Positions 16,120 to 26,505 of a DNA stretch of 64,000 bases are shown piece by piece. Source of the stretch: Candidatus Xenobia bacterium (GTDB lineage: Bacteria > Vulcanimicrobiota > Xenobia > Xenobiales > QWHO01). A program made the position numbers and the translations under genes. The notes beneath the pieces were generated by a model. It was not told where the DNA came from and made no database searches. It saw only the letters and a program-made list of their open reading frames with translations. The stretch spans positions 32,001-96,000 of the forward strand of contig BTUM01000010.1 in NCBI GenBank assembly GCA_045863235.1, read 5' to 3'. Positions within the stretch are counted from its first letter, which is position 1; each line of letters opens with the position of its first letter.

Positions 16120-16363
16120 AGACCTCCGTTCCTGGGCTCAGGTGGCGAAGTTAGCCTCCCCGGGGTCGATCTCCCCCCGAGGATCGATCGGCCAGGTCGA
16201 CCGGCGTGGAACATCAATTCCAGGAGGAGCGAGTTGTCCCCGAGCCTCCGGAGCGATTCCAGGGCATTTCGAATGAATTCCCAGCTGGGCGCAGCAGCAA
16301 TCCTACATGTCAGGCTGACCTGGCCAAAGGAATGCTCTTCAAGAGGTCGAAGGGGGTGGCGCC

Positions 16364-16825
16364 ATGAAGATAATGCCCAGAGCGATTGAGGGTCTGATCG
16401 TAAGTCCCGTCGGGGACGGAGACTCGGTAGTCTTCAATAAACAGCAGAATCGCGTTCACTCTCTGAATGCCGTGGCTGCCAGGGTTCTCTCGGCGTGCGA
16501 CGGGGTCACTCCGATGAGCGACGTTGTGCAAGCTCTGGCACCAGCTTATGGTGACAGTACCGAAGATGTCCTCTGGTTAACGCTCCGGAGGCTGCAGAGC
16601 TCAGGCCTGCTGGCCACTCCCCTGCCAGGCAACGGGCTCTCATCCAGACGCGAGTTCTTGGGCAAATGGGGCAAGATCGCGGCCGCGCTGCCCATCGTGG
16701 CCTCCATCGCCGCTCCGGCGCCGGCGGCCGCCCAGTCAGCTGGATGCGGGTTCTTTGGAGACCCCTGTCCCTGCTGTCCCGGTTTTGGTCTCGCTTGCGT
16801 GGGCGGTATTTGCACTGCCACCTGA
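16364..16825 (+). CDS. PqqD/RRE-domain protein fused to a twin-arginine-like signal and a Cys-rich C-terminal peptide
   Basis: VHSLNAVAARVLSACDG...LRRLQSSGLL (PqqD pattern); SSRREFL...AALPIVASIAAPAPAAA/QS; tail CGFFGDPCPCCPGFGLACVGGIC. Confidence 0.8.
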   Translation: MKIMPRAIEGLIVSPVGDGDSVVFNKQQNRVHSLNAVAARVLSACDGVTPMSDVVQALAPAYGDSTEDVLWLTLRRLQSSGLLATPLPGNGLSSRREFLGKWGKIAAALPIVASIAAPAPAAAQSAGCGFFGDPCPCCPGFGLACVGGICTAT

Positions 16826-17928
16826 GCGTAGCCGGCCGACTCTTTGACCGCTGGCGACCCCTGGCCCCTCTCTGGCGGGCTGCTTACCTGAACGACGAGC
16901 GAGCGATCCAATCGTGGCTCACCTGGCGCGGCAACAATCCTCTGGCCAGCCAACCAGGCTACCTTCCGAGCGTGTTAGGCAACCTCCGCCGACTGGGCTA
17001 CAAGGACGCAGACTTCGGTTTTCTCGAGCATCTCGAAGAAGAATTCTGGTCTCACCTCGAGTTAATCGAGCGCGGAGGCGAGCGAGCCCTGGGCCACCTG
17101 CACCAACAGGGCATCCCTACCCTGCGACTCAAGGGAGCTGCCATGGTGAAGTCCTACTACCGCGAGTCCGGCTCCCGCTGGATGGCCGACTTCGACATCC
17201 TGGTTCCTCGCCACGATGCGGCTCGGGCCCTGGATGCCCTGGCCAGCCAGGGCTGGGTGAGCGACCATGATCTACCCCTTTCCCAGATGCTGACACATCA
17301 CAGTCAGGGTCACCGGCACCCGGACCACCCTGGCTACCGGATCGATCTGCACTGGCATGCCCTGTCCGAATGCCGCTGGCCCGGTTCCGACGAAGCAGTT
17401 TGGAGCCGCAGCCGAGACGGACTGCTCGATCCGGCCGACCATCTGGTGGTACTATGCTGCAATGCCGCCCGGGACAACTCCCGCTCTCCCTGGCTACTGG
17501 ATGCCAGCGCCATTCTGGAGCGGACCGGTGAACAGCTCGACTGGTCGGTGGTGATTTCAGAAAGTCGAGCCCGCCGAGTTGAGATCCCGGTGGCGGCCGC
17601 TCTGGCCTTCCTGGGTAGCGAGCTGGGGCTACCAGTATCCCGGGCCCTGGATGAGGCCCCCTCCGCATGGTGCGACGGGGTTTACTTCTGGAGCCAGATG
17701 CACGCCTCCCCGTTGGCGATGCTGGCTGAAACCTGGTGTGATTTTCTACGCACCGATCGACCGGGCTGGCGATGGTGGAGGATACTCGACTTCCTGCAAG
17801 AGCGATGGGGTGTCAGCGGGCCGCTCCCTCTAGGGGCCGAGCTGCTGCGGCGCGCCCGCAGGCGGCTTGTCCGCAATCGACCGGCCGACTTCCCCTCCAA
17901 AGCAATTCAGAGTGTGGCTTCCGGATGA
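16822..17928 (+). CDS. nucleotidyltransferase family protein (NTP_transf_5-like)
   Basis: LKGAAM..YY.....RWMADFDILVP, IDLHW, WLLD motifs; start uncertain (CTG 16822 overlapping the upstream stop, or TTG 16810). Confidence 0.78.
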   Translation: MSVAGRLFDRWRPLAPLWRAAYLNDERAIQSWLTWRGNNPLASQPGYLPSVLGNLRRLGYKDADFGFLEHLEEEFWSHLELIERGGERALGHLHQQGIPTLRLKGAAMVKSYYRESGSRWMADFDILVPRHDAARALDALASQGWVSDHDLPLSQMLTHHSQGHRHPDHPGYRIDLHWHALSECRWPGSDEAVWSRSRDGLLDPADHLVVLCCNAARDNSRSPWLLDASAILERTGEQLDWSVVISESRARRVEIPVAAALAFLGSELGLPVSRALDEAPSAWCDGVYFWSQMHASPLAMLAETWCDFLRTDRPGWRWWRILDFLQERWGVSGPLPLGAELLRRARRRLVRNRPADFPSKAIQSVASG

Positions 17929-17982
17929 CCTGGCCATTGTCGCGTGGGGGTCGTCGAAAGCGAGATACCGCTGCCGATTCCT

Positions 17983-18783
17983 TTACAGGCCCAGATATTC
18001 TCGTTCCTCATAAAGACGCATCAGATTGTCAAAAAAGCTGCTCCCCTTGTCCACCATGAGCACCTGGCCGCTGACCCCATCCATCAACCCCGAGCAGAGA
18101 GCCAGGATGACGTTGGCGACCTCCTCGCACGTGATGAACTGGTTGGCGCCGAAGCGGCTGGCGAAGTCCTCGAACTCGGGGCCGAAGGTCGCCCGCAGCG
18201 ACTCGGTGCGCACCAGTCGCGAGCGAACCACGTTGATGCGGATGTCCTCAGCGTGGAGTCGAAAGTTGATGTATCGACAGAGGGTCTCCATGACGGCTTT
18301 GGAGGCGGCCACGAAGTCATAGTTCTTGTAGAAGGCGTCCGGCCCCCCGCTGGACAGACCGACGACGTAACGGGGATAACGGCCGAAGGATGCCTGGATG
18401 GCTCGGGTAATGGCGTACATGGGCCAGGCACTGTAGTGAATGCTCTGGTAGAGGGCGCGCTCCTCATAATCCTCCAGGCCCCTGACGATCAGGGCCACCG
18501 AGACGTTTGAGACAAATGCTTCCACGCCATCGTGCTCGGCTTTCATGCGGGCCAACAGCTCTTTGCTGTCCTCTTCCCGGCCGACATCGGCGCAAACGAT
18601 CCGGGGGGTCGGGAGTCCGGCGTCACGGAACTGTTTGAGGACCTCATCCTCCTCGGCCGTACCCCACTTGTGGGTCAGCCATGCCACCGCGCCCTGTCGG
18701 GCGAAAGCCAGTCCGGTCGCCAGCCCGATGCCCATGGTGGCGCCGGTGATCAGCACCGCCTTCCCGCTGAAGTCATTGATCAA
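17983..18783 (-). CDS. SDR enoyl-ACP reductase, FabL-like
   Basis: GKAVLITGATMGIG; YDFVAASKAVMETLCRY (Y-x6-K, FabL/FabI type); TTG start after GAGGA. Confidence 0.75.
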   Translation of the reverse strand: MINDFSGKAVLITGATMGIGLATGLAFARQGAVAWLTHKWGTAEEDEVLKQFRDAGLPTPRIVCADVGREEDSKELLARMKAEHDGVEAFVSNVSVALIVRGLEDYEERALYQSIHYSAWPMYAITRAIQASFGRYPRYVVGLSSGGPDAFYKNYDFVAASKAVMETLCRYINFRLHAEDIRINVVRSRLVRTESLRATFGPEFEDFASRFGANQFITCEEVANVILALCSGLMDGVSGQVLMVDKGSSFFDNLMRLYEEREYLGL

Positions 18784-19522
18784 GAGATTCCTCGATTCCG
18801 CTCCGAGCCTCTGGCGAGGCAAAACTCACCCGGTGCATCAGAGACTCGACGGTGTGCGTGCGCTCAAAGGCCTGGCGGCGGGGCAGGGAGAGGGTGCGTT
18901 TGAGGATCTCCAGCGCGCCGCGAGGTTTCTCGGCAAATCGGGCGGCCAGGTCCATGGCCCTTCCCAGCACCTGCTCGCGCGGCAGGATGGCATTGAAGCC
19001 GCTGCGCCCCTCGAACCAGGAGCCCTTCTTCGGCTCGCCTCCGAACAAGAGCTCGCAAGCCAGGGCCGGGGTCATGACGTGGGTGAGCAGTTCGGTGAGG
19101 CCCATTCCCGGAGTGAACCCCATGTTCATGAAACTGGCGCCATAACGGCTCTCCCGGGCGATCAGCAGGATGTCGGCGCAAATTCCCAGCGCCAGCCCTC
19201 CCCCGATGGCGTGCCCTTCCATGGCAGCGATGACGGGCACCGGAAGATCGAGCACCACCTTGGGGAGCACGATGTCGGCTGGAGCCAACCGTCCCCCCAG
19301 CAGTCCCACCAGCACCTCGCGGCTGGCACCCGAGCAGAACACCTCCGGCAGGCCGCTCAGCACGATGACGCGCAGCTCGGGCCACTCCGTGGCCGCCCGC
19401 AGGTTGGCCAGCAGAGCTTCGACAAAGGCCTCGCTCATCGCGTTCTTGCCCGCTTCGTCGCGCATCGCGATCTGGGCGATCCCGCCTTCGTGACGGAGGC
19501 ACTCGATCACCGTTTCTCCCAT
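18773..19522 (-). CDS. enoyl-CoA hydratase-like ECH2 (PksI-type beta-branching decarboxylase)
   Basis: MRDEAGKNAMS, AAMEGHAIGGGL, FMNMGFTPGMG, LKRTL motifs typical of PksI. Confidence 0.85.
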   Translation of the reverse strand: MGETVIECLRHEGGIAQIAMRDEAGKNAMSEAFVEALLANLRAATEWPELRVIVLSGLPEVFCSGASREVLVGLLGGRLAPADIVLPKVVLDLPVPVIAAMEGHAIGGGLALGICADILLIARESRYGASFMNMGFTPGMGLTELLTHVMTPALACELLFGGEPKKGSWFEGRSGFNAILPREQVLGRAMDLAARFAEKPRGALEILKRTLSLPRRQAFERTHTVESLMHRVSFASPEARSGIEESLDQ

Positions 19523-20208
19523 GGCGCCCGGCCGTGCTCCACGAAGTCGCGCACCCGGCGCTGTACCCTGGGCTCGGCCAGCAGCTCGTCGGTGATCAGA
19601 ACGCCTCGAGCCAGCCCCTCGGCCAGCTCCAGGCGCTCGGCCTGGCTGACGAAAGAACGCAGGCGCCCCGCGCCAACGCCCCGGGCCAGATCGCGCGACC
19701 AGCGTCGGGCCACTCGCTCCAAAGAATCCTCCGGGGCGATCTCATCCACCAGGCCACTGGCCTGAGCCCACTCGGCAGTCCGACTGCTCCCGACCATGGC
19801 CAGCAGTCGAGCCTTCTGAGGAGACATCCGTTGCAGCAAGACGGGCATGATGATGGCCGGCAACAGACCGAACAGACATTCCGGCAGCCCGAAGGTAGAG
19901 CGCGGCGTGGCCAGCACCAGGTCGCAGGCCGCGGCCAGGCCCAGCCCGCCTCCCAGAGTCTCGCCGTCCACCAGGGCCACGGTCGGCACGGGAGCCTCGA
20001 CCAGGCTGGCGAGACAGGCTGCAAAATCCTGCGTGCTCGGTGTCTGGCCCATCAGGGCAAGGTCGAGGCCGCGGCAGAAGATCCCCGCCTGGCCCTCCAG
20101 CAGCCAGATCCTGGCCTCCTCCGCGGCTGCGCGCTCGAGCTGGTGGGCCAGCCCGGCCAAGGTCTCGGGCGACAGTGTCGCCGGCACCTCAATGCGCATC
20201 AGCTCCAA
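19507..20208 (-). CDS. enoyl-CoA hydratase-like ECH1 (PksH-type beta-branching dehydratase)
   Basis: FCRGLDL, GGGLGLAAACDLVLA, FGLPECLFGLLPA, GLVDE; sits between HCS and ECH2. Confidence 0.85.
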   Translation of the reverse strand: MELMRIEVPATLSPETLAGLAHQLERAAAEEARIWLLEGQAGIFCRGLDLALMGQTPSTQDFAACLASLVEAPVPTVALVDGETLGGGLGLAAACDLVLATPRSTFGLPECLFGLLPAIIMPVLLQRMSPQKARLLAMVGSSRTAEWAQASGLVDEIAPEDSLERVARRWSRDLARGVGAGRLRSFVSQAERLELAEGLARGVLITDELLAEPRVQRRVRDFVEHGRAPWEKR

Positions 20209-21425
20209 CCATACTGGCGATAGAATTCGTGGGCACCGCGAAAGACGAGATAGCCCTTGCCGGCATAGTGTCTCTCGTACCAGTGGTCAAAGCCACTCGT
20301 GTCGGCCTCGAAGTCGCCGTCGTCGATGTGGGCCGTGCGCTCGCCCTCGGCCTGCTCATACTCCTCAACGCTGAGCCCATGGCGCTGGTCGAGCAACCTC
20401 TTGAGATCAGCGGCAGCTGCCACCGAGTGGGCCTGCGGGCCGAGCAGGCCGCTCCACATTTCCGAGCAGCACCCGGATCCGTAAGAGAACATCCCGATTC
20501 GATCCCCGGTCTCAAGCTCGGGGCACTCGTCCAGCAGGCCCAGCAGGCCCACGAAAGTGCTCGAGCCATAGGTTCCACCCAGGCGACGGATGTAGGTCAG
20601 CGAGGGTCGGGTCTTCTCGGCCCAGAGCTCATCCGCCTCAGATCGCTTGTAGCTGCCAAAGTGGCCCAGAGCCGTGCGCGTGGCCCGCAGGGTCAGCCCG
20701 CCGAAAGGCGCGTGGTAGACATTCTTTTTGAAGTAGTCGTAACCGACGCTCTGACCGAGCGTCCTGAGGTAGTCCGCCACAGCCATGTCCAGTGCTTCCA
20801 GATAACTGAGCAGGCTGGTCTCGCTGTTGCCGGTCTCTACCCGCGAGGTTGGCCGGGTGAGGTCCGAAACCTCGTTGGTGAAGATGCCGCTCTTGCCCGG
20901 CTCGATCTCCAAAAGGTCGGGCTCAGACGAGACCAGCAGGGCCGTGGCGCTGGCGCCCATCACGAACTCCCACGGCTTGCCAAAGTGGGCCCGGCTCTGA
21001 TCGGTCGAGATCACCAGAGCCTTCTTACCCGCCCCCCCGCTAGCCAGCCAGCTGGCGGCCATGTGCAAACCCGCGGTGGCTCCGTAGCACGCGTGCTTGA
21101 GCTCGAAGTTGCGGCAACGACTGGTCAGCCCCAGGTAGCGCTGGACCCAGGTGCTCATCGGCTTCTCCTGGTCCACCCCGCTCTCGCTGCCCACGATCAA
21201 GAGCTCGATCGAGGCCTTCTCTTCCTCGGTCAGCATGGGCAGGGCGGCGTTCACGGCCATGGTGACCGGGTCTTCCCAGGGTGGATTGACGCTGCGCTCG
21301 TCGATCATCATGACCTCGCGGATATTGGCCGGGTCGTGGTTGCGGGCCGCGCACAGGCGGTCCATGGGGAGGGCCATGCTGGCCGGATAAACCCGAGCCT
21401 TCTCGATGCCGACGCGCGAGCTCAT
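20199..21425 (-). CDS. HMG-CoA synthase-like 3-hydroxy-3-methylglutaryl-ACP synthase (PksG-type)
   Basis: EDPVTMAVNAA, SESGVDQEK, FELKHACYGATAGL, SLLSYLEAL, YHAPFGG, FSYGSGCCSE. Confidence 0.92.
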   Translation of the reverse strand: MSSRVGIEKARVYPASMALPMDRLCAARNHDPANIREVMMIDERSVNPPWEDPVTMAVNAALPMLTEEEKASIELLIVGSESGVDQEKPMSTWVQRYLGLTSRCRNFELKHACYGATAGLHMAASWLASGGAGKKALVISTDQSRAHFGKPWEFVMGASATALLVSSEPDLLEIEPGKSGIFTNEVSDLTRPTSRVETGNSETSLLSYLEALDMAVADYLRTLGQSVGYDYFKKNVYHAPFGGLTLRATRTALGHFGSYKRSEADELWAEKTRPSLTYIRRLGGTYGSSTFVGLLGLLDECPELETGDRIGMFSYGSGCCSEMWSGLLGPQAHSVAAAADLKRLLDQRHGLSVEEYEQAEGERTAHIDDGDFEADTSGFDHWYERHYAGKGYLVFRGAHEFYRQYGWS

Positions 21426-22162
21426 GGACCCCAGTCCAGCCCGCCGGTGACCGAGATGGCTTCACCATTGATATAGCTGGCGGCCTCGGAGCAAAGAAAG
21501 AGGATGGCTCGAGCCGCCTCGACAGGCTCGCCGGTGCGACCGAGCGGGTTGTAGGTTATCCAGAACTGCCGGTTGCCCTCGCTCATTCCCTCGCGGGTCA
21601 TGTCGGTCTCGATGAAACCGAGCAACACCGCGTTACTGCGGATGCCGCGGCGGCCATACTCCTTGGCCAGGGTGCTGGACAGACCGAGCAGGCCGGCCTT
21701 GCTGGCGGCGTAGGGAGCCTGACCGCTGATTCCCTTCGCCCCCATCGAGGAAACAAAAACGAGGCTGCCGCTTCGATTGGCCACCATGCCAGGGAGAAAT
21801 TGACGAGCCACAAAGAAAGAGCCCGTCAGGTTGGTATCGATGACCGTCTGCCAGGTTTCGTCCGGCATGTTGGCCGCCAGTCCGTTCAGGTTGATGCCGG
21901 CGTTACAGATCACCGCATCCACCCGGTCGAAGTCATCGAGCACCTGGTTTCCGACCTCATCGACCTGGTCCGAGTTGCGCACATCTAGAGGATAAGCCTG
22001 GCAGCGAGCCTCGGGACGGACCGCGTGGGCGGCTCGGATGACCTCCTCGGCCCGGTCGGGGCTGGTGTGGTAGGTAAAAGCCACCTCGTAGCCCTGACGA
22101 ATCGCCTCCAAAACGATGGCCTGGCCGATTCCGCGCGATCCCCCGGTGATGAAGACGTTCAC
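21422..22162 (-). CDS. 3-oxoacyl-ACP reductase (FabG-like SDR)
   Basis: TGGSRGIG, CNAGI, NLTGSF, GQAPYAASKAG, GFIETDMT; GTGA overlap with the KS. Confidence 0.9.
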   Translation of the reverse strand: MNVFITGGSRGIGQAIVLEAIRQGYEVAFTYHTSPDRAEEVIRAAHAVRPEARCQAYPLDVRNSDQVDEVGNQVLDDFDRVDAVICNAGINLNGLAANMPDETWQTVIDTNLTGSFFVARQFLPGMVANRSGSLVFVSSMGAKGISGQAPYAASKAGLLGLSSTLAKEYGRRGIRSNAVLLGFIETDMTREGMSEGNRQFWITYNPLGRTGEPVEAARAILFLCSEAASYINGEAISVTGGLDWGP

Positions 22163-23457
22163 GCTCCAACCTCCTCGGGCTCGGGGCGGCGTAAGATGGA
22201 CACCGAGTTGATGCCTCCGAAGCCAAACGAGTTCTTCATGACGTAGCGCATCGGATGCTCCACCACGCGCCCGCGGCAAACGTCCAGGTCGACCTCCGGG
22301 TCCAGCTCATCGATATTGATGGAAGGATGCAAGCGACCGGCGTTCATCTGCAGGATGGCTGCCACCGACTCCACCAGGGGGGCAGCCCAGCAGGTGTGGC
22401 CGAGCATGGACTTGGTCGCGTTCAGCTTGAGCTTGTAAGCGTGAGGTCCGAAGACCTTCTTGATGGACCGAATCTCGGTCAGGTCGCCGAGCGGGGTGGA
22501 GGTGGCGTGGGCATTGACGTAGTCGATCTGCTCCGGGGCCAGTTGGCAGGTTTGGAGCAGTCGCAGCATCAGCCTGGACTGACCCTCCTCGGAAGGCTGG
22601 GGCAGGTGGTTGCCGTCCGAGTTGCTCTCCACCCCGACCAGCTCGGCATGGATGCGGGCCCCCCGACGGCGGGCCGCCTCCCAGGACTCCAGCACCAGGG
22701 TGGCGCCCCCGTGGGCCGGCACGAAACCTTCCCGGCGGACGTCAAAGGGACGGCTGGCTCGGGTGGGGTCGTCGTTGAAGCTCTCAAAGGTAATGGCGCC
22801 CATCAGCGCCATGGCGTGCAGCTCCACCGGGGAAAAATCCAGCACCGCCCCCACCACCACGGCCACCTCCACCTCGTGGTAACGAATCTCGTCCACTGCC
22901 GAGCGAAGGGCGGCGTTGCCGCTCGCGCAGGCGCCTCCGATGGTGTAGATGGGGCCCATCACCGGCAGGACCTCGGAGATCGAGCCGGCATGATCGGTGT
23001 CAAGGCCCGTCAGAGCGAGCAGCGAGTCCATATAGTCCGGCTCTTCCTCGAACTGCAGCCGGTTCTGGTACTGGAAGTCGAAGTTGATGTTGTGACCGGC
23101 CACGATGGCGGCGATCCGGGATGGATCGATCTCCTGGCCGAACAGGCCCGCGTCCTGAAAGCCGTCCACCGCCAGCAGCATGGAAAGGCCGGTCGACCAG
23201 GGGGCGCGGGAAACCAGCTTGCGCAAGCGCTTGTGGACGTCGGCCGGAATCTCGCTGCTCAACCGGGCCAGTTTTGCCTTCACGTCGTAGTCGCTGAGGT
23301 CGGCTCCCACCTTGGAGTAGATCCGGGAGGTATCCCAGCGCTTCCAGTTGGAGAGGGCCGAGCGGCCCGCCAGCAAGGCCTCGAGGTAGCCCGGCAGCGT
23401 GTCCCCCAGGGGAGTGTTGATAGCCATCCCCGTGACGGCGATGCGCTCACTCCTCAA
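22159..23457 (-). CDS. beta-ketoacyl-ACP synthase, PksF-like but with the active-site Cys retained
   Basis: YTIGGACASGNAA, SRPFD.RREGFV, YVNAHATST.LGD, TKSMLGH, NSFGFGGINS. Confidence 0.9.
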   Translation of the reverse strand: MRSERIAVTGMAINTPLGDTLPGYLEALLAGRSALSNWKRWDTSRIYSKVGADLSDYDVKAKLARLSSEIPADVHKRLRKLVSRAPWSTGLSMLLAVDGFQDAGLFGQEIDPSRIAAIVAGHNINFDFQYQNRLQFEEEPDYMDSLLALTGLDTDHAGSISEVLPVMGPIYTIGGACASGNAALRSAVDEIRYHEVEVAVVVGAVLDFSPVELHAMALMGAITFESFNDDPTRASRPFDVRREGFVPAHGGATLVLESWEAARRRGARIHAELVGVESNSDGNHLPQPSEEGQSRLMLRLLQTCQLAPEQIDYVNAHATSTPLGDLTEIRSIKKVFGPHAYKLKLNATKSMLGHTCWAAPLVESVAAILQMNAGRLHPSINIDELDPEVDLDVCRGRVVEHPMRYVMKNSFGFGGINSVSILRRPEPEEVGA

Positions 23458-23953
23458 CCAGGTAGACCTCTTGAACCGAATACGAGCAGATCGTCTCCCG
23501 GCAGAGCACCTGTCCCAGGCACAGAGCCGTGTAATCGTTCCAATCGAGGATGCGGGCCAACAAGGTCAGCTCGCTGTCGGGGCCGATGGCCTCCAGATAC
23601 TCGGCGGTGTGCACCTTGAGGGCCCGCACTCGAGACGAGCGCCCCAGCAGATAAGGCAACAGGCACAACCCGAGCTGGCCCACCATCTCGATCTGCAGCA
23701 CCCCGGGATAGACCGGCTCGCCCGGAAAGTGGCCCGCGAACACGGGGTCGCTGGCAGACACGTAGCGTCGGCCCCGAATCGATTGCTCCTCGACGCCGAT
23801 GTGGGTGATCTCGTCCAAGAACAGGAATGGTTCGCGGTGTGGGAGCATCCGCTCGATCTCCTCGCGGCCCAGAAAGACCCCCTCCCCTTGCGGAACCCAG
23901 ATGGGCTTACGCCGGGCCGACTTACCGGTGGAACGCAGCTCCAGCGGGTCCAC
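23447..23953 (-). CDS. 3-hydroxyacyl-ACP dehydratase (FabZ-like)
   Basis: LPHREPFLFLDEI, FAGHFPGEPVYPGVLQIE. Confidence 0.9.
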   Translation of the reverse strand: MDPLELRSTGKSARRKPIWVPQGEGVFLGREEIERMLPHREPFLFLDEITHIGVEEQSIRGRRYVSASDPVFAGHFPGEPVYPGVLQIEMVGQLGLCLLPYLLGRSSRVRALKVHTAEYLEAIGPDSELTLLARILDWNDYTALCLGQVLCRETICSYSVQEVYLVEE

Positions 23954-24893
23954 TCAGAAGCTCCTCCACCAGCGTCGCCATTGAAGCACCAAAATCTCCT
24001 TCTGAGTCGGTCGTGTAGCGCTTCGGATCCAGCCACTTTCTTCCAAAGAAGTCCGTAAGCACCGATTTGGGGCCGGTTTCTACGAAGATCAAGTCTTTCT
24101 CCTGCCGAGAAAGGCACTCCATGGACTCCCTCCAGCGCACCGGATTCCAGGTGTGGCGAGACAGACAATCGATGAAACCGACGCGATCGGGCTCAGCCAG
24201 GAATTCTCCCGTCAGGTTGGGCAGATAGGGGCGCTCTGGGGTCCGCCAGCAAGCCGCCTCCAGGGCCGGCCGCAGGACCTCCCCGGTGGAGCGAAAGCGG
24301 GGCGAATGCATGGGCAATCGCTCCTCGATCACGCGCGACTGGGCATAGAACTCTTCCTCGGCCTGCAGGGCCAGTCTCTCGACCAGGTCGGCCTGGCCGG
24401 AGAGGACGCACTGGCGGGGCGTGTTGTACATTCCGATGCCCACCTGCCCGTCTGTCCTGGTCCGCTCCAGGAGCTCCTCGATCTCCTCGGGACCGACCGG
24501 AAAAACTGCCGTCATGACTCCCTCGGGACCCTCCTCATAGGCCAGGCCGCGAACTTCGAGGATGCGCAGCGCCTCCTCGAAATCCAGGGCCCCGATGTGA
24601 ACCAGGTGATTGAACTCGCCCAGGCTCAGGCCAGCCGAATACTCCGCCTCCAGGCCCTGCCGCTGCAGATTCTGCCAGTGCATGTGATTGGCCAGAAAAA
24701 CCCCCAGCTGGACGTCGCGGTTGCGCTCGAACACCGTCGGATTGTCGGAGCGAAAGTGGCGCTTGAGGTCGCGTCCGAGAACGTCCGAGGCTTGCTCGAG
24801 AATGGCCAGGTTGCGGGGATCCCAGGCCAGGAGGTGGTCGAACATAGCCGGGTATCTGGAGTTTTGTCCGGGGAAGAGCAGAGCGACGGGCAT
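23922..24893 (-). CDS. ACP S-malonyltransferase (FabD-like)
   Basis: LLFPGQ, AGLSLGEF (GxSxG), R in VRG, PMHSP, PVRW, FVETGP. Confidence 0.9.
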   Translation of the reverse strand: MPVALLFPGQNSRYPAMFDHLLAWDPRNLAILEQASDVLGRDLKRHFRSDNPTVFERNRDVQLGVFLANHMHWQNLQRQGLEAEYSAGLSLGEFNHLVHIGALDFEEALRILEVRGLAYEEGPEGVMTAVFPVGPEEIEELLERTRTDGQVGIGMYNTPRQCVLSGQADLVERLALQAEEEFYAQSRVIEERLPMHSPRFRSTGEVLRPALEAACWRTPERPYLPNLTGEFLAEPDRVGFIDCLSRHTWNPVRWRESMECLSRQEKDLIFVETGPKSVLTDFFGRKWLDPKRYTTDSEGDFGASMATLVEELLSGPAGAAFHR

Positions 24894-24966
24894 GGGGCTA
24901 ATGGGCTCTCGCTCGGGTCGTGCCCGGCAGCACAATCTGGCGACCGGGCCGCCACAGGCATTGCAC

Positions 24967-26235
24967 TTAGACCTGGACCCCCTTGAGCAAGCCTCTGCTG
25001 CGCATGGCCGGCACGATCACGTCGGCGATGATCCCGAGCGCCTGGTCCAGGCTCTCGCGGCTGTGCCCGGCCGTCACGCTGGCCCGGAAGCGCAACTGCT
25101 CGAGCGGGACGCTGGGATAGTCCACCGGGCTGACGAACAGGCCCCGGTCCCGGAGGGCGTGGCCCAGTTCGTAGAGCAAGGCCCGGTCGTCGCCGATCAC
25201 GATGGGAATCACGTAGCTGTTGGAATCGCCCGTATTCAGGCCCAGGCCATGGAGTTGCCGGCGGAAATAGTTGGCGTTCTCCCACAGGCGCTCTCGCCGC
25301 CACGGCTCTTCCCGGACGACCTCCAGCGCGGCCGACAGACCGGCGACCGTGGCCGGGGGCAGAGCGCACGAGAAGCCATAGGGATTGGAGTAGAAGCGCA
25401 GGTAATCGACGATCTCCGGAGTCGCAGCGGCAAAGCCCCCACACGATGAAAAGCCCTTGGAGAAGGTTCCATACTGGATGCCGACCCTCTGGCCGGCTCC
25501 AAAGTGCTCCACGACCCCCCCACCCCCGGGTCCGCAGCACAGGATGGAGTGGGCCTCATCGACCAGCATGCCCACCCGGTGGCTTTCGGCCACCTCGAGC
25601 AGGGCCGGCAGGTTGGCCATGTCGCCATCCATCGAGTAGATCCCCTCCACGATGACGATCCGGCGCTTGCCGCTCTCCCGGGTCAAGATGGCGTCCAGAG
25701 ACTGCGGGTCATTGTGCTGGAAGAAGGCCAGCCTGGCTCCCGATACCCGGACCCCGTCCACCAGCGACGTGTGGGAGCGCTCGTCGAGGACGGCGCAGTC
25801 CCCCTTGCGCAGCAGTCCGGCCACCGTCCCCAGCGCGCCGGCAAATCCGCTGTTGTAGGTCAACACGCCCTCCTGCCCGGTGAGAAGCCGAAGTCCGCTC
25901 TCCAACTGGTCGTGCAGGGTGGTTCGGCCCGAGAGGATGGGTGAGCCGCATGAGCCGGTGCCGAACTGATCGAGCGCGTCCTTGGCGGCCTGGATGATCT
26001 TTGGATGGCGCATCAGCGCCAGGTAGCCGTACGAGGCCATGTTGATGACCGACCGGGAGCCCAGTCGGCAGGTCGCTTCGGCAGCCGAGCCCAGGGAAGG
26101 CTCGTAGAGGGAGATGGCCCAGGCCACGTCGCGCCGCCACTTGAGGAAATCGGGCGGGGGAACCAGCGGATCGTCAGTCTCGGCCAGAAAAAAATCTGCC
26201 AGGCTGAACTTGTCGGATTCAGACCCTGAGTTCAT
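24967..26235 (-). CDS. PLP-dependent alpha-oxoamine synthase (serine palmitoyltransferase/BioF family)
   Basis: NMASYGYLAL, GTGSCGS..LSG, H.SLVDG, FQHND, EGIYSMDGD, LVDEAHS, GTFSK (PLP lysine), FSCALPP. Confidence 0.9.
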   Translation of the reverse strand: MNSGSESDKFSLADFFLAETDDPLVPPPDFLKWRRDVAWAISLYEPSLGSAAEATCRLGSRSVINMASYGYLALMRHPKIIQAAKDALDQFGTGSCGSPILSGRTTLHDQLESGLRLLTGQEGVLTYNSGFAGALGTVAGLLRKGDCAVLDERSHTSLVDGVRVSGARLAFFQHNDPQSLDAILTRESGKRRIVIVEGIYSMDGDMANLPALLEVAESHRVGMLVDEAHSILCCGPGGGGVVEHFGAGQRVGIQYGTFSKGFSSCGGFAAATPEIVDYLRFYSNPYGFSCALPPATVAGLSAALEVVREEPWRRERLWENANYFRRQLHGLGLNTGDSNSYVIPIVIGDDRALLYELGHALRDRGLFVSPVDYPSVPLEQLRFRASVTAGHSRESLDQALGIIADVIVPAMRSRGLLKGVQV

Positions 26236-26238
26236 GGC

Positions 26239-26505
26239 TCAGGAGGCCGGGGCTTGTTCCTTCTGAGCGACGGTCTGGTGCAGAATGTCGACCAGGGCGT
26301 CCAGATTGGTGAGTTTGGAGAGCTCAGAGCGAGGGATCTTGACCTTCAGCTCGCGCATCGAGCAGGAAACGATCTCCACGATATCCAGGCTGTTCAGGCC
26401 CAGGTCTTTCATGGAGCGGGAGGGGTCGATCTGCGCCTCCTGGATCTCCTCGGAAATCTCCATGATGTGCTTGTTGATGACCGCTTGAATCGCTTCCCTC
26501 GTCAT
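26239..26505 (-). CDS. acyl carrier protein (AcpK/donor-ACP-like)
   Basis: SMKDLGLNSLDIVEIV (GxNS attachment motif), LKVKIPRSEL. Confidence 0.88.
   Translation of the reverse strand: MTREAIQAVINKHIMEISEEIQEAQIDPSRSMKDLGLNSLDIVEIVSCSMRELKVKIPRSELSKLTNLDALVDILHQTVAQKEQAPAS

Follow-up and report, generated by a model that had tools for sequence, protein, structure and literature searches.

A 64,000-nucleotide stretch of DNA from a Candidatus Xenobia bacterium (contig BTUM01000010.1, positions 32,001 to 96,000; hereafter the window) carries, at 16364..16825 on the plus strand, a gene for a 153-residue protein in which a RiPP (peptide made on the ribosome and modified after translation) recognition element (RRE) is joined to a twin-arginine leader and a six-cysteine cargo. 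We find that this fused precursor belongs to a large family that keeps the RRE and the leader while its C-terminal tails vary. The family is real and conserved, a fused variant of the phosphopeptide systems that employ a kinase and a transferase, probably routed to twin-arginine translocation (Tat); its copy in the window is a satellite that lacks the kinase and whose knot is atypical. In the scheme developed below, to which we give about an even chance, the RRE would keep hold of its own leader during phosphorylation of Ser125 by a kinase and addition of a sugar by a transferase; Tat export and cleavage by a housekeeping signal peptidase would follow.

The fused precursor and its family

The precursor gene starts with an ATG downstream of a purine-rich run (16352-16359), and all features given here lie on its strand. 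The RRE/PqqD domain, residues 1-88 (16364..16627), has three strands and three helices and matches PF05402 (PqqD) with 30.8 bits against a cut-off of 23.4; TIGR04353 reaches 21.6 bits, below its cut-off of 35, yet is among the best NCBIfam matches. The nearest structures are lasso-peptide B1 proteins: an AlphaFold2 model of the precursor from 99 sequences (mean predicted local distance difference test score 89.7; predicted template modelling score, pTM, 0.75) is best matched by TbiB1 (Z 9.4, root mean square deviation (rmsd) 2.1, 81 aligned) and TfuB1 (Z 9.1), and VIA-align to TbiB1 gave Z 9.4-9.8 across models. Next come the twin-arginine motif SSRREFL (residues S93 to L99) with an amphipathic helix at 95-108 (together 16640..16687), a segment P110-x-V112-x-S114-I-x-A-P118 (16691..16717) modelled as a recognition strand added to the RRE sheet, and A121-x-A123 (16724..16732), a predicted cleavage site of the signal-peptidase-I type with AAA before and QS after the cut (residues 121-125). 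The 30-residue cargo (16733..16822) holds Ser125 (16736..16738), the candidate phospho-acceptor 15 residues past P110, and six cysteines in the order C-C-CC-C-C with a very short loop 2 (C-x6-C-x-CC-x6-C-x4-C). Each element that the first-pass annotation had read into this 153-residue open reading frame (ORF), namely a PqqD/RRE domain, an internal RR motif, an AxA site and a six-cysteine tail, is borne out at 16364-16825, and the profile and structural matches agree with the PqqD fold that it assigned to the N terminus. An internal start ahead of the RR motif was ruled out, the Leu92 codon being CTC.

A full HMMER scan returned 3,333 representatives (50% identity) at E<=0.001 and 408 at 1e-10; a word-index protein search gave three relatives only and understates the family. 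In 99 aligned members the two arginines are conserved at 98% and 95%, P110 at 98% and P118 at 97%, with Ala at positions 121 and 123 in 80% and 87%. A chance ORF is excluded because of this number of relatives and the conservation of the twin arginine. The leader pattern was matched in 358 of 388 non-identical members, in which tails are free to vary, and the 153 family proteins that were printed likewise keep RRE and leader ahead of a variable tail; the annotation had looked to just such a combination of conserved RRE and signal with a hypervariable end. Among the 358, the twin arginine is present in 353 and is preceded by Ser or Thr in 297 of these, the position four past the leader Pro (that of Ser114) is Ser or Thr in 94% (S 85%, T 9%), the second Pro is kept in 99%, and Ala occupies P+11 and P+13 in 69% and 83%. 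P+15, the Ser125 position, is Ser in 67% (241/358) and Thr in 24%; as a control, ordinary Tat signals from the same genome were compared at the residue past AxA, but with four proteins only this was uninformative. Named hosts of the family are Acidobacteriota, Gemmatimonadota and Methylomirabilota. Within the window's own phylum 75 of 201 genomes match, many weak matches covering the RRE alone, and the closest precursor relative noted is 55% identical. Searches of plasmids gave one Gemmatirosa record, which is unannotated, and the members that were looked up are unnamed or 'hypothetical', in line with the suspicion that such proteins already lay uncharacterised in databases.

Tails range from 1 to 480 residues among the 358 members, some cargoes being domain-sized (about 500 residues) and some almost absent. 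Of the 328 tails that bear cysteine, 313 have an even number and 15 an odd one, and 30 tails have none; larger cargoes include TIG, vWF/YfbK, PT-HINT, S74 and DUF1554 domains. The C-C-CC-C-C order, which inhibitor cystine knot peptides share, occurs in 126 of 163 six-cysteine tails. We used the usual loop-size consensus of such knots as the yardstick. A loop 2 (Cys II to Cys III) of one residue is found only in the window copy (1/126), the others having 3-11 with a mode of 5, and Foldseek matched its cargo weakly to the knottin 2LL1 (E 1.6, rmsd 1.6 over 34 columns). The cysteine order behind the inhibitor-cystine-knot call therefore stands in this bacterial family, but the single-residue loop is atypical for a knot, and from its sequence a cystine knot in the window copy is doubtful. 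As judged by these comparisons, the cysteine tail is one of many interchangeable cargoes, and the conserved module is RRE, leader and candidate acceptor Ser. The presumed site of modification shifts as well: the conserved acceptor candidate is not in the cysteine-rich part but is Ser125, at the junction of leader and cargo.

One genome (G060; L034-L048) has 18 family matches, mostly orphan copies with differing cysteine-rich cargoes. Tandem RRE-like domains, two in number, precede the leader at L051:7353-8330, L067:6541-7551, L037:4261-5340 and L073:7261-8361.

Modelled binding of the leader by the RRE

When the model is cut at residue 126, without the tail, it retains the strand at 112-116 (pTM 0.81); since this strand persists without the tail, its modelled partner must be an RRE strand. 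Both models superpose on NisB (4WD9) up to model residue 119 and chain residue 1020. The 4WD9 chain has 1006 residues, 13 beyond the NisB part of 6M7Y, and we read the extra 13 as the bound NisA leader. Mutual information with average product correction, computed on 388 sequences, puts 42-98 (z 5.1) and 32-114 (z 3.7) at the top of the RRE-by-leader pairs, and covariation also links F98 and W102 to residues 42 and 70 in the RRE helices. The 32-114 pair fits an antiparallel pairing with beta-3, and the pairs of 42/70 with 98/102 would place the R-R-x-F-L helix on the RRE helices. A complex prediction for RRE 1-88 with leader 92-127 scored 0.03, its partner fold uncertain, and was used neither way. 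The RRE thus appears to bind its own leader, as the first-pass annotation had envisaged; strand 112-116 beside the RRE, the range of superposition on 4WD9 and the covariation all point to this arrangement, which is modelled only.

The same packing suits a different view, in which the RR helix is built into an extended RRE fold as one of its structural elements and the protein is no Tat substrate, staying in the cytoplasm, remaining tethered uncut in the membrane or leaving by another route. The poor conservation of the Tat Phe, and the match of TIGR01409 to 6 of 99 members, would favour this view together with the modelled helix and its covariation. We nevertheless hold it to be improbable, given the near-invariant S/T-R-R, an AxA at signal-peptide distance, the even cysteine counts, cargo domains of extracellular type and MauE-thioredoxin fusions in 5 of 202 loci; nor does any dedicated exporter or peptidase cluster recur among the neighbours. 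The genome encodes TatC and two housekeeping LepB genes. No signal peptidase of either type was found in the 202 loci with a 10-sequence TIGR02228 profile and LepB queries, the TIGR02228 profile giving only a weak housekeeping match in the window's own genome. No B2 peptidase was found in the 202 loci, and asparagine-synthetase-like matches numbered only four.

Chaperones of the TorD and NapD type bind a twin-arginine signal until cytoplasmic maturation is complete; here that part would fall to an RRE belonging to the same polypeptide. A Tat motif away from the N terminus also works in Rieske proteins of actinobacteria (PMC5449189), where Sec-inserted helices precede it; in the precursor a soluble domain takes their place.

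Partner enzymes and the proposed maturation route

The next gene (16810..17928, plus strand) encodes an enzyme of nucleotidyltransferase fold, NTP_transf_5 (PF14907, 96.1 bits), which overlaps the precursor stop, as had been called at first pass, and has its catalytic residues intact. It keeps all nine columns that are invariant in 13 cassette enzymes, including K-G, DxD (D123/D125; 17188-17196) and a third Asp (D175; 17344). Candidate starts are ATG 16666, ATG 16744, TTG 16795, TTG 16810 and CTG 16822; with every one of them the gene overlaps the precursor stop, and the first ATG, GTG or TTG past that stop is GTG 16972. The junction has no ATG or GTG, and TTG 16810 or CTG 16822 are the likely starts; we prefer TTG 16810, with 16666-16822 possible. 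A search of solved structures with the transferase profile found no relative.

Neighbours were scored with profiles from our own alignments in 79 named-genome loci, chosen as the best among the 372 matches that a narrow alignment gave. A transferase is present in 64 of the 79, an HprK-like kinase in 54, both in 50 and neither in 11; in 14 the transferase has no kinase in range. The usual cassette order is kinase, precursor, transferase. The association with the nucleotidyltransferase is thus conserved, but the two-part system first drawn from the window missed a third partner, the kinase upstream. In 80 metagenome loci, many of them short, the counts are 56 for the transferase, 31 for the kinase and 22 for both. 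Own-phylum loci (42, from 17 genomes; 40 were taken from top matches, 15 of them from one genome) have the kinase in 21 and the transferase in 14. Cassette kinases have intact H-A-G, P-loop and S-D-E motifs and often stand beside a degenerate second copy; their best NCBIfam match is TIGR04352, and their profile matches HPr kinases weakly (E 0.0025).

The window's genome holds possible partners elsewhere. Its contig C29 (L235:7693-8514) has an orphan HprK-like kinase that is intact, shares 49% identity with cassette kinases of Acidobacteriota and Gemmatimonadota, and is a candidate trans partner. On contig C6 (L001:6371-9736) there is a second cassette, with an intact kinase, a divergent degenerate kinase, a PF14907 transferase and a 239-residue RRE-leader protein with a large cysteine-rich cargo; it lies within a polysaccharide locus of Wzy/Wzx/Wza type. 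Two of the three PF14907-like genes of the genome adjoin its two fused precursors and the third belongs to a lasso cluster. That cluster is separate (C46:45287-51834, L234); besides B1, B2 and a cyclase it has a short precursor with YxxPxL, a kinase of HprK-like type, a PF14907-like transferase and an ATP-binding cassette (ABC) transporter. Recurrent neighbours of the family include genes for O-antigen ligase/TPR, Wzc-like, glycosyltransferase and peptidase C25 proteins, and a role at the surface or capsule is suggested by the polysaccharide genes. Peptidase C25 (gingipain-family) genes (L088:8705-11779 and relatives) are near the cassette in 25 of 79 loci, and a 441-residue protein without Pfam match (L078:8762-10084) recurs in eight.

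The closest parallel is with the linear polyphosphorylated peptides (LPPs) of Bacillota (Popov et al. 2026, PMC13381572), whose system genes are named LppA/B/K/N/S/D and, in capsule loci, comprise a discrete RRE, LppK (TIGR04352), LppN (PF14907, as is PbaN), a signal peptidase of archaeal type and an ABC exporter. The LPP leader reads YxxPxVLxHQxIxFETxxS, the core begins AQS, and Ser3 is phosphorylated (PMC13381572). Both systems have a lasso-type RRE, a TIGR04352-like kinase (for the family at large; the window locus has none), a PF14907 transferase, a conserved leader with a hypervariable C terminus and frequent polysaccharide-locus context, and neither has a macrolactam cyclase; both have P-x-V followed by A-Q-S, with an offset of 15 from Pro to Ser (P110 to S125, the register of P(-13) to S3 in LppA). 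Unlike the LPP RRE, which is discrete, that of the family is fused in cis to its own leader, with a twin-arginine helix where LPPs have YxxP. The family has an AxA site, its loci lack both a dedicated peptidase of archaeal type and an ABC exporter that is dedicated and recurrent, its cargoes are of disulfide type and domain-sized, and it is found in Acidobacteriota, Gemmatimonadota, Methylomirabilota and the window's phylum. On three counts, the discrete RRE, the YxxP motif and the dedicated peptidase, the window's system falls outside the LPPs proper. By analogy, the precursor could be a one-chain version of an LPP-like phosphopeptide precursor, a comparison for which we see the case as evenly balanced.

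Among phosphorylated or phosphoglycosylated lasso peptides, paeninodin (PadeK) and pseudomycoidin (PsmK/PsmN) also involve an HprK-like kinase, an NTP transferase with DxD and a B1-type RRE (PMC6993621); unlike them, the cassette has no B2 peptidase or cyclase, its RRE is fused, and its acceptor candidate is at the start of the cargo, not a C-terminal Ser. HPr-rel-A, which combines a TIGR04352 kinase with a TIGR04353 PqqD chaperone, provides the best or near-best NCBIfam matches, both far below cut-off, and TIGR04353 models a stand-alone chaperone of 74 residues without leader or cargo, whereas the family is fused. Burhizin was ruled out as a precedent, its RRE being fused to a peptidase.

In our scheme, the N-terminal RRE would first bind its own leader, as the model and covariation suggest, the P-x-V-x-S strand extending the RRE sheet and the R-R-x-F-L helix packing on the RRE helices so that the export motif is hidden. 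Gene neighbourhood and the LPP analogy suggest that an HprK-like kinase, acting in trans from contig C29 or C6, would then phosphorylate Ser125. The adjacent PF14907 enzyme would add a sugar or sugar-phosphate to the Ser125 phosphate; we expect a sugar rather than a nucleoside monophosphate (NMP) because of the precedent of PsmN, which is needed for adding one or two hexoses (+162/+324 Da) to phosphorylated Ser (Zyubko et al. 2019, PMC6993621). Finally, judging from the motifs, the RRE would let the leader go to the Tat translocase, a housekeeping enzyme, signal peptidase I, would cut after A123, and the cargo would form disulfides outside the cytoplasm.

The first-pass annotation had the transferase alone nucleotidylate an exported knottin, with no kinase step. 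The transferase is indeed the more constant neighbour and the sole partner at the window locus, and it has the nucleotidyltransferase fold with DxD. We rate this version as very improbable: PsmN, its only characterised relative in the literature covered, yields hexose additions on an already phosphorylated Ser, not NMP, and kinases are present in trans. Nucleotidylation finds no precedent in the literature covered, where the closest characterised pair phosphorylates Ser and then adds hexose (PsmK/PsmN; LppK for the phosphorylation).

Another possibility is that the family is an export module only, with the RRE as a built-in signal chaperone for cargo that leaves unmodified; kinase and transferase would then act on the leader, for example on Ser114 as an export switch, or on polysaccharide or another substrate. 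Ser114 is as conserved as Ser125, cargoes are unrelated or nearly missing, orphan copies are many (the 18 matches of G060, the loci with neither enzyme) and polysaccharide genes are frequent neighbours. We think this rather unlikely. The modelled place of Ser114 in the RRE-paired strand and its covariation with His32 explain its conservation, whereas Ser or Thr just past AxA is 91% conserved despite the variable cargo and fits the register of the mapped LPP phosphosite.

Several observations weigh against the phosphorylation and Tat-export scheme. In the leader, the position three before the Pro is V, A, L or I in family members, and since Y or W does not occur there, binding cannot follow the standard YxxP mode; two conserved prolines lie inside the leader, and the canonical Tat Phe is found in only 52 of 353 members, L, M and V dominating. 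The literature covered has no precedent for an 88-residue soluble domain ahead of a Tat signal. The covariation weakens in the locus-only half (32-114 at z 2.2, rank 37 of 3150) and may reflect clade structure. LppK rejected S3T (PMC13381572), whereas 24% of family members have Thr, and LppN was inactive in its sole test (PMC13381572). The 15-residue match from Pro to Ser could be coincidence, the residues between them being unlike those of LPPs. As to the enzymes, the kinases score 50-84 bits against the TIGR04352 cut-off of 200, no kinase was found at the window locus, and the 79 loci are mostly acidobacterial, hence not independent. In a quick tree with long branches the window transferase groups with only one other cassette enzyme, and several closer relatives sit in another RRE system or alone.

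That other system is a second family of RREs, extended at the C terminus by a fused segment (P-x-L ... D-M-x-D/E-L-L-x-L-D-P, in many cases with G-W-P at its end); it occurs in 9 of the 13 loci that surround relatives of the window transferase (L274:4965-5459, L275:1417-2271, L276:4512-5144, L277:7864-8436, L278:2259-2663, L279:7693-8097, L280:8600-9007, L281:6371-6775, L284:8313-8717). It has no twin-arginine motif and adjoins HprK-like kinases and GT2-like glycosyltransferases, and may be another self-binding type of RRE precursor.

The window copy and the meaning of the family

Both genes lie in a segment of about 1.8 kb (16175..17998), in place of which a congener (G104) joins the two flanking genes by about 25 nt. 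The fraction of G+C at third codon positions (GC3) is 0.67 in the precursor and 0.71 in the transferase versus 0.92 and 0.80 in the flanking genes; only this local contrast was used, since the genome-wide background is mixed with shadow frames (34% of 8,214 frames are at or below 0.71). The lower GC3 on which acquisition had been proposed is therefore present, along with an empty site that supports a recent gain or loss of the unit, but one relative cannot separate gain from loss; the GC3 contrast favours gain. A look at the segment for terminal repeats, a target duplication, a plus-strand promoter and a terminator gave nothing convincing.

The window copy might also be a drifting, partly decayed insertion, the family working as described while this locus yields little or no modified, folded product. 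Its absence from the congener, the lack of a kinase at the locus, a transferase on a long branch with no ATG or GTG start near the junction and the unique loop 2 are what such decay would leave. It is a poor fit, and in our estimate quite unlikely, as both frames are open with all invariant catalytic residues intact, the leader consensus is complete, a relative at 55% identity exists, an intact orphan kinase is present on C29, and the precursor, like parts of the transferase, is covered by contigs from an RNA library. In one metatranscriptome a contig spans 16371-16783 with no differences, and shorter pieces lie inside the transferase; these contigs are consistent with transcription, not proof of it. 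Their depth of 19.7 on the precursor versus 3-4 elsewhere is unfit for ranking genes; the run was found with the precursor gene, and nine RNA-library rows with small word shares were left out.

On the minus strand at 17983-26505 is a cassette of beta-branching type without a modular polyketide synthase. It comprises two short-chain dehydrogenases/reductases, two enoyl-CoA hydratases, an HMG-CoA synthase-like protein, a ketosynthase, a FabA-like protein, an acyltransferase, a pyridoxal-phosphate aminotransferase of class I/II and an acyl carrier protein. Over the part searched, it has 89-95% DNA identity in two congeners only.

Full-text literature (subscription journals mostly outside coverage) gave no description of an RRE and its own twin-arginine leader fused in one chain, and the available portions of RRE-Finder 2020 (PMC7470986), a daptide preprint, a cell-free lasso preprint and the 2025 RRE update (PMC12710340) do not mention such a fusion. 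According to that update, 21% of PF05402 proteins exceed discrete size without other annotation (PMC12710340), a class that probably includes the fused family. In the literature covered, RREs are separate or fused to enzymes; no case was found of an RRE joined to the leader that is its ligand, nor of one that acts on a twin-arginine signal. Grouped at 50% identity, the family numbers thousands of clusters, from uncultured bacteria that are abundant. For two enzyme families that are poorly understood it provides a defined substrate in cis; the role of PF14907 is testable with a two- or three-gene construct, and a leader that tolerates any cargo would be a ready tool for secreting tagged disulfide-rich peptides.

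In a broader conjecture, which we rate as rather unlikely, RRE, twin-arginine leader and acceptor Ser would form a portable N-terminal sorting tag. The RRE would proofread the export signal until kinase and transferase have built a phosphodiester-linked glycan on the Ser, and cargo of any kind, anything between a knottin and a vWF domain of 500 residues, would then leave by Tat and be displayed on the capsule or tied to it. If true, this would be a general route for anchoring proteins to glycans in Acidobacteriota, Gemmatimonadota and relatives, and the family would hold a very large natural library of bacterial knottin-like peptides.

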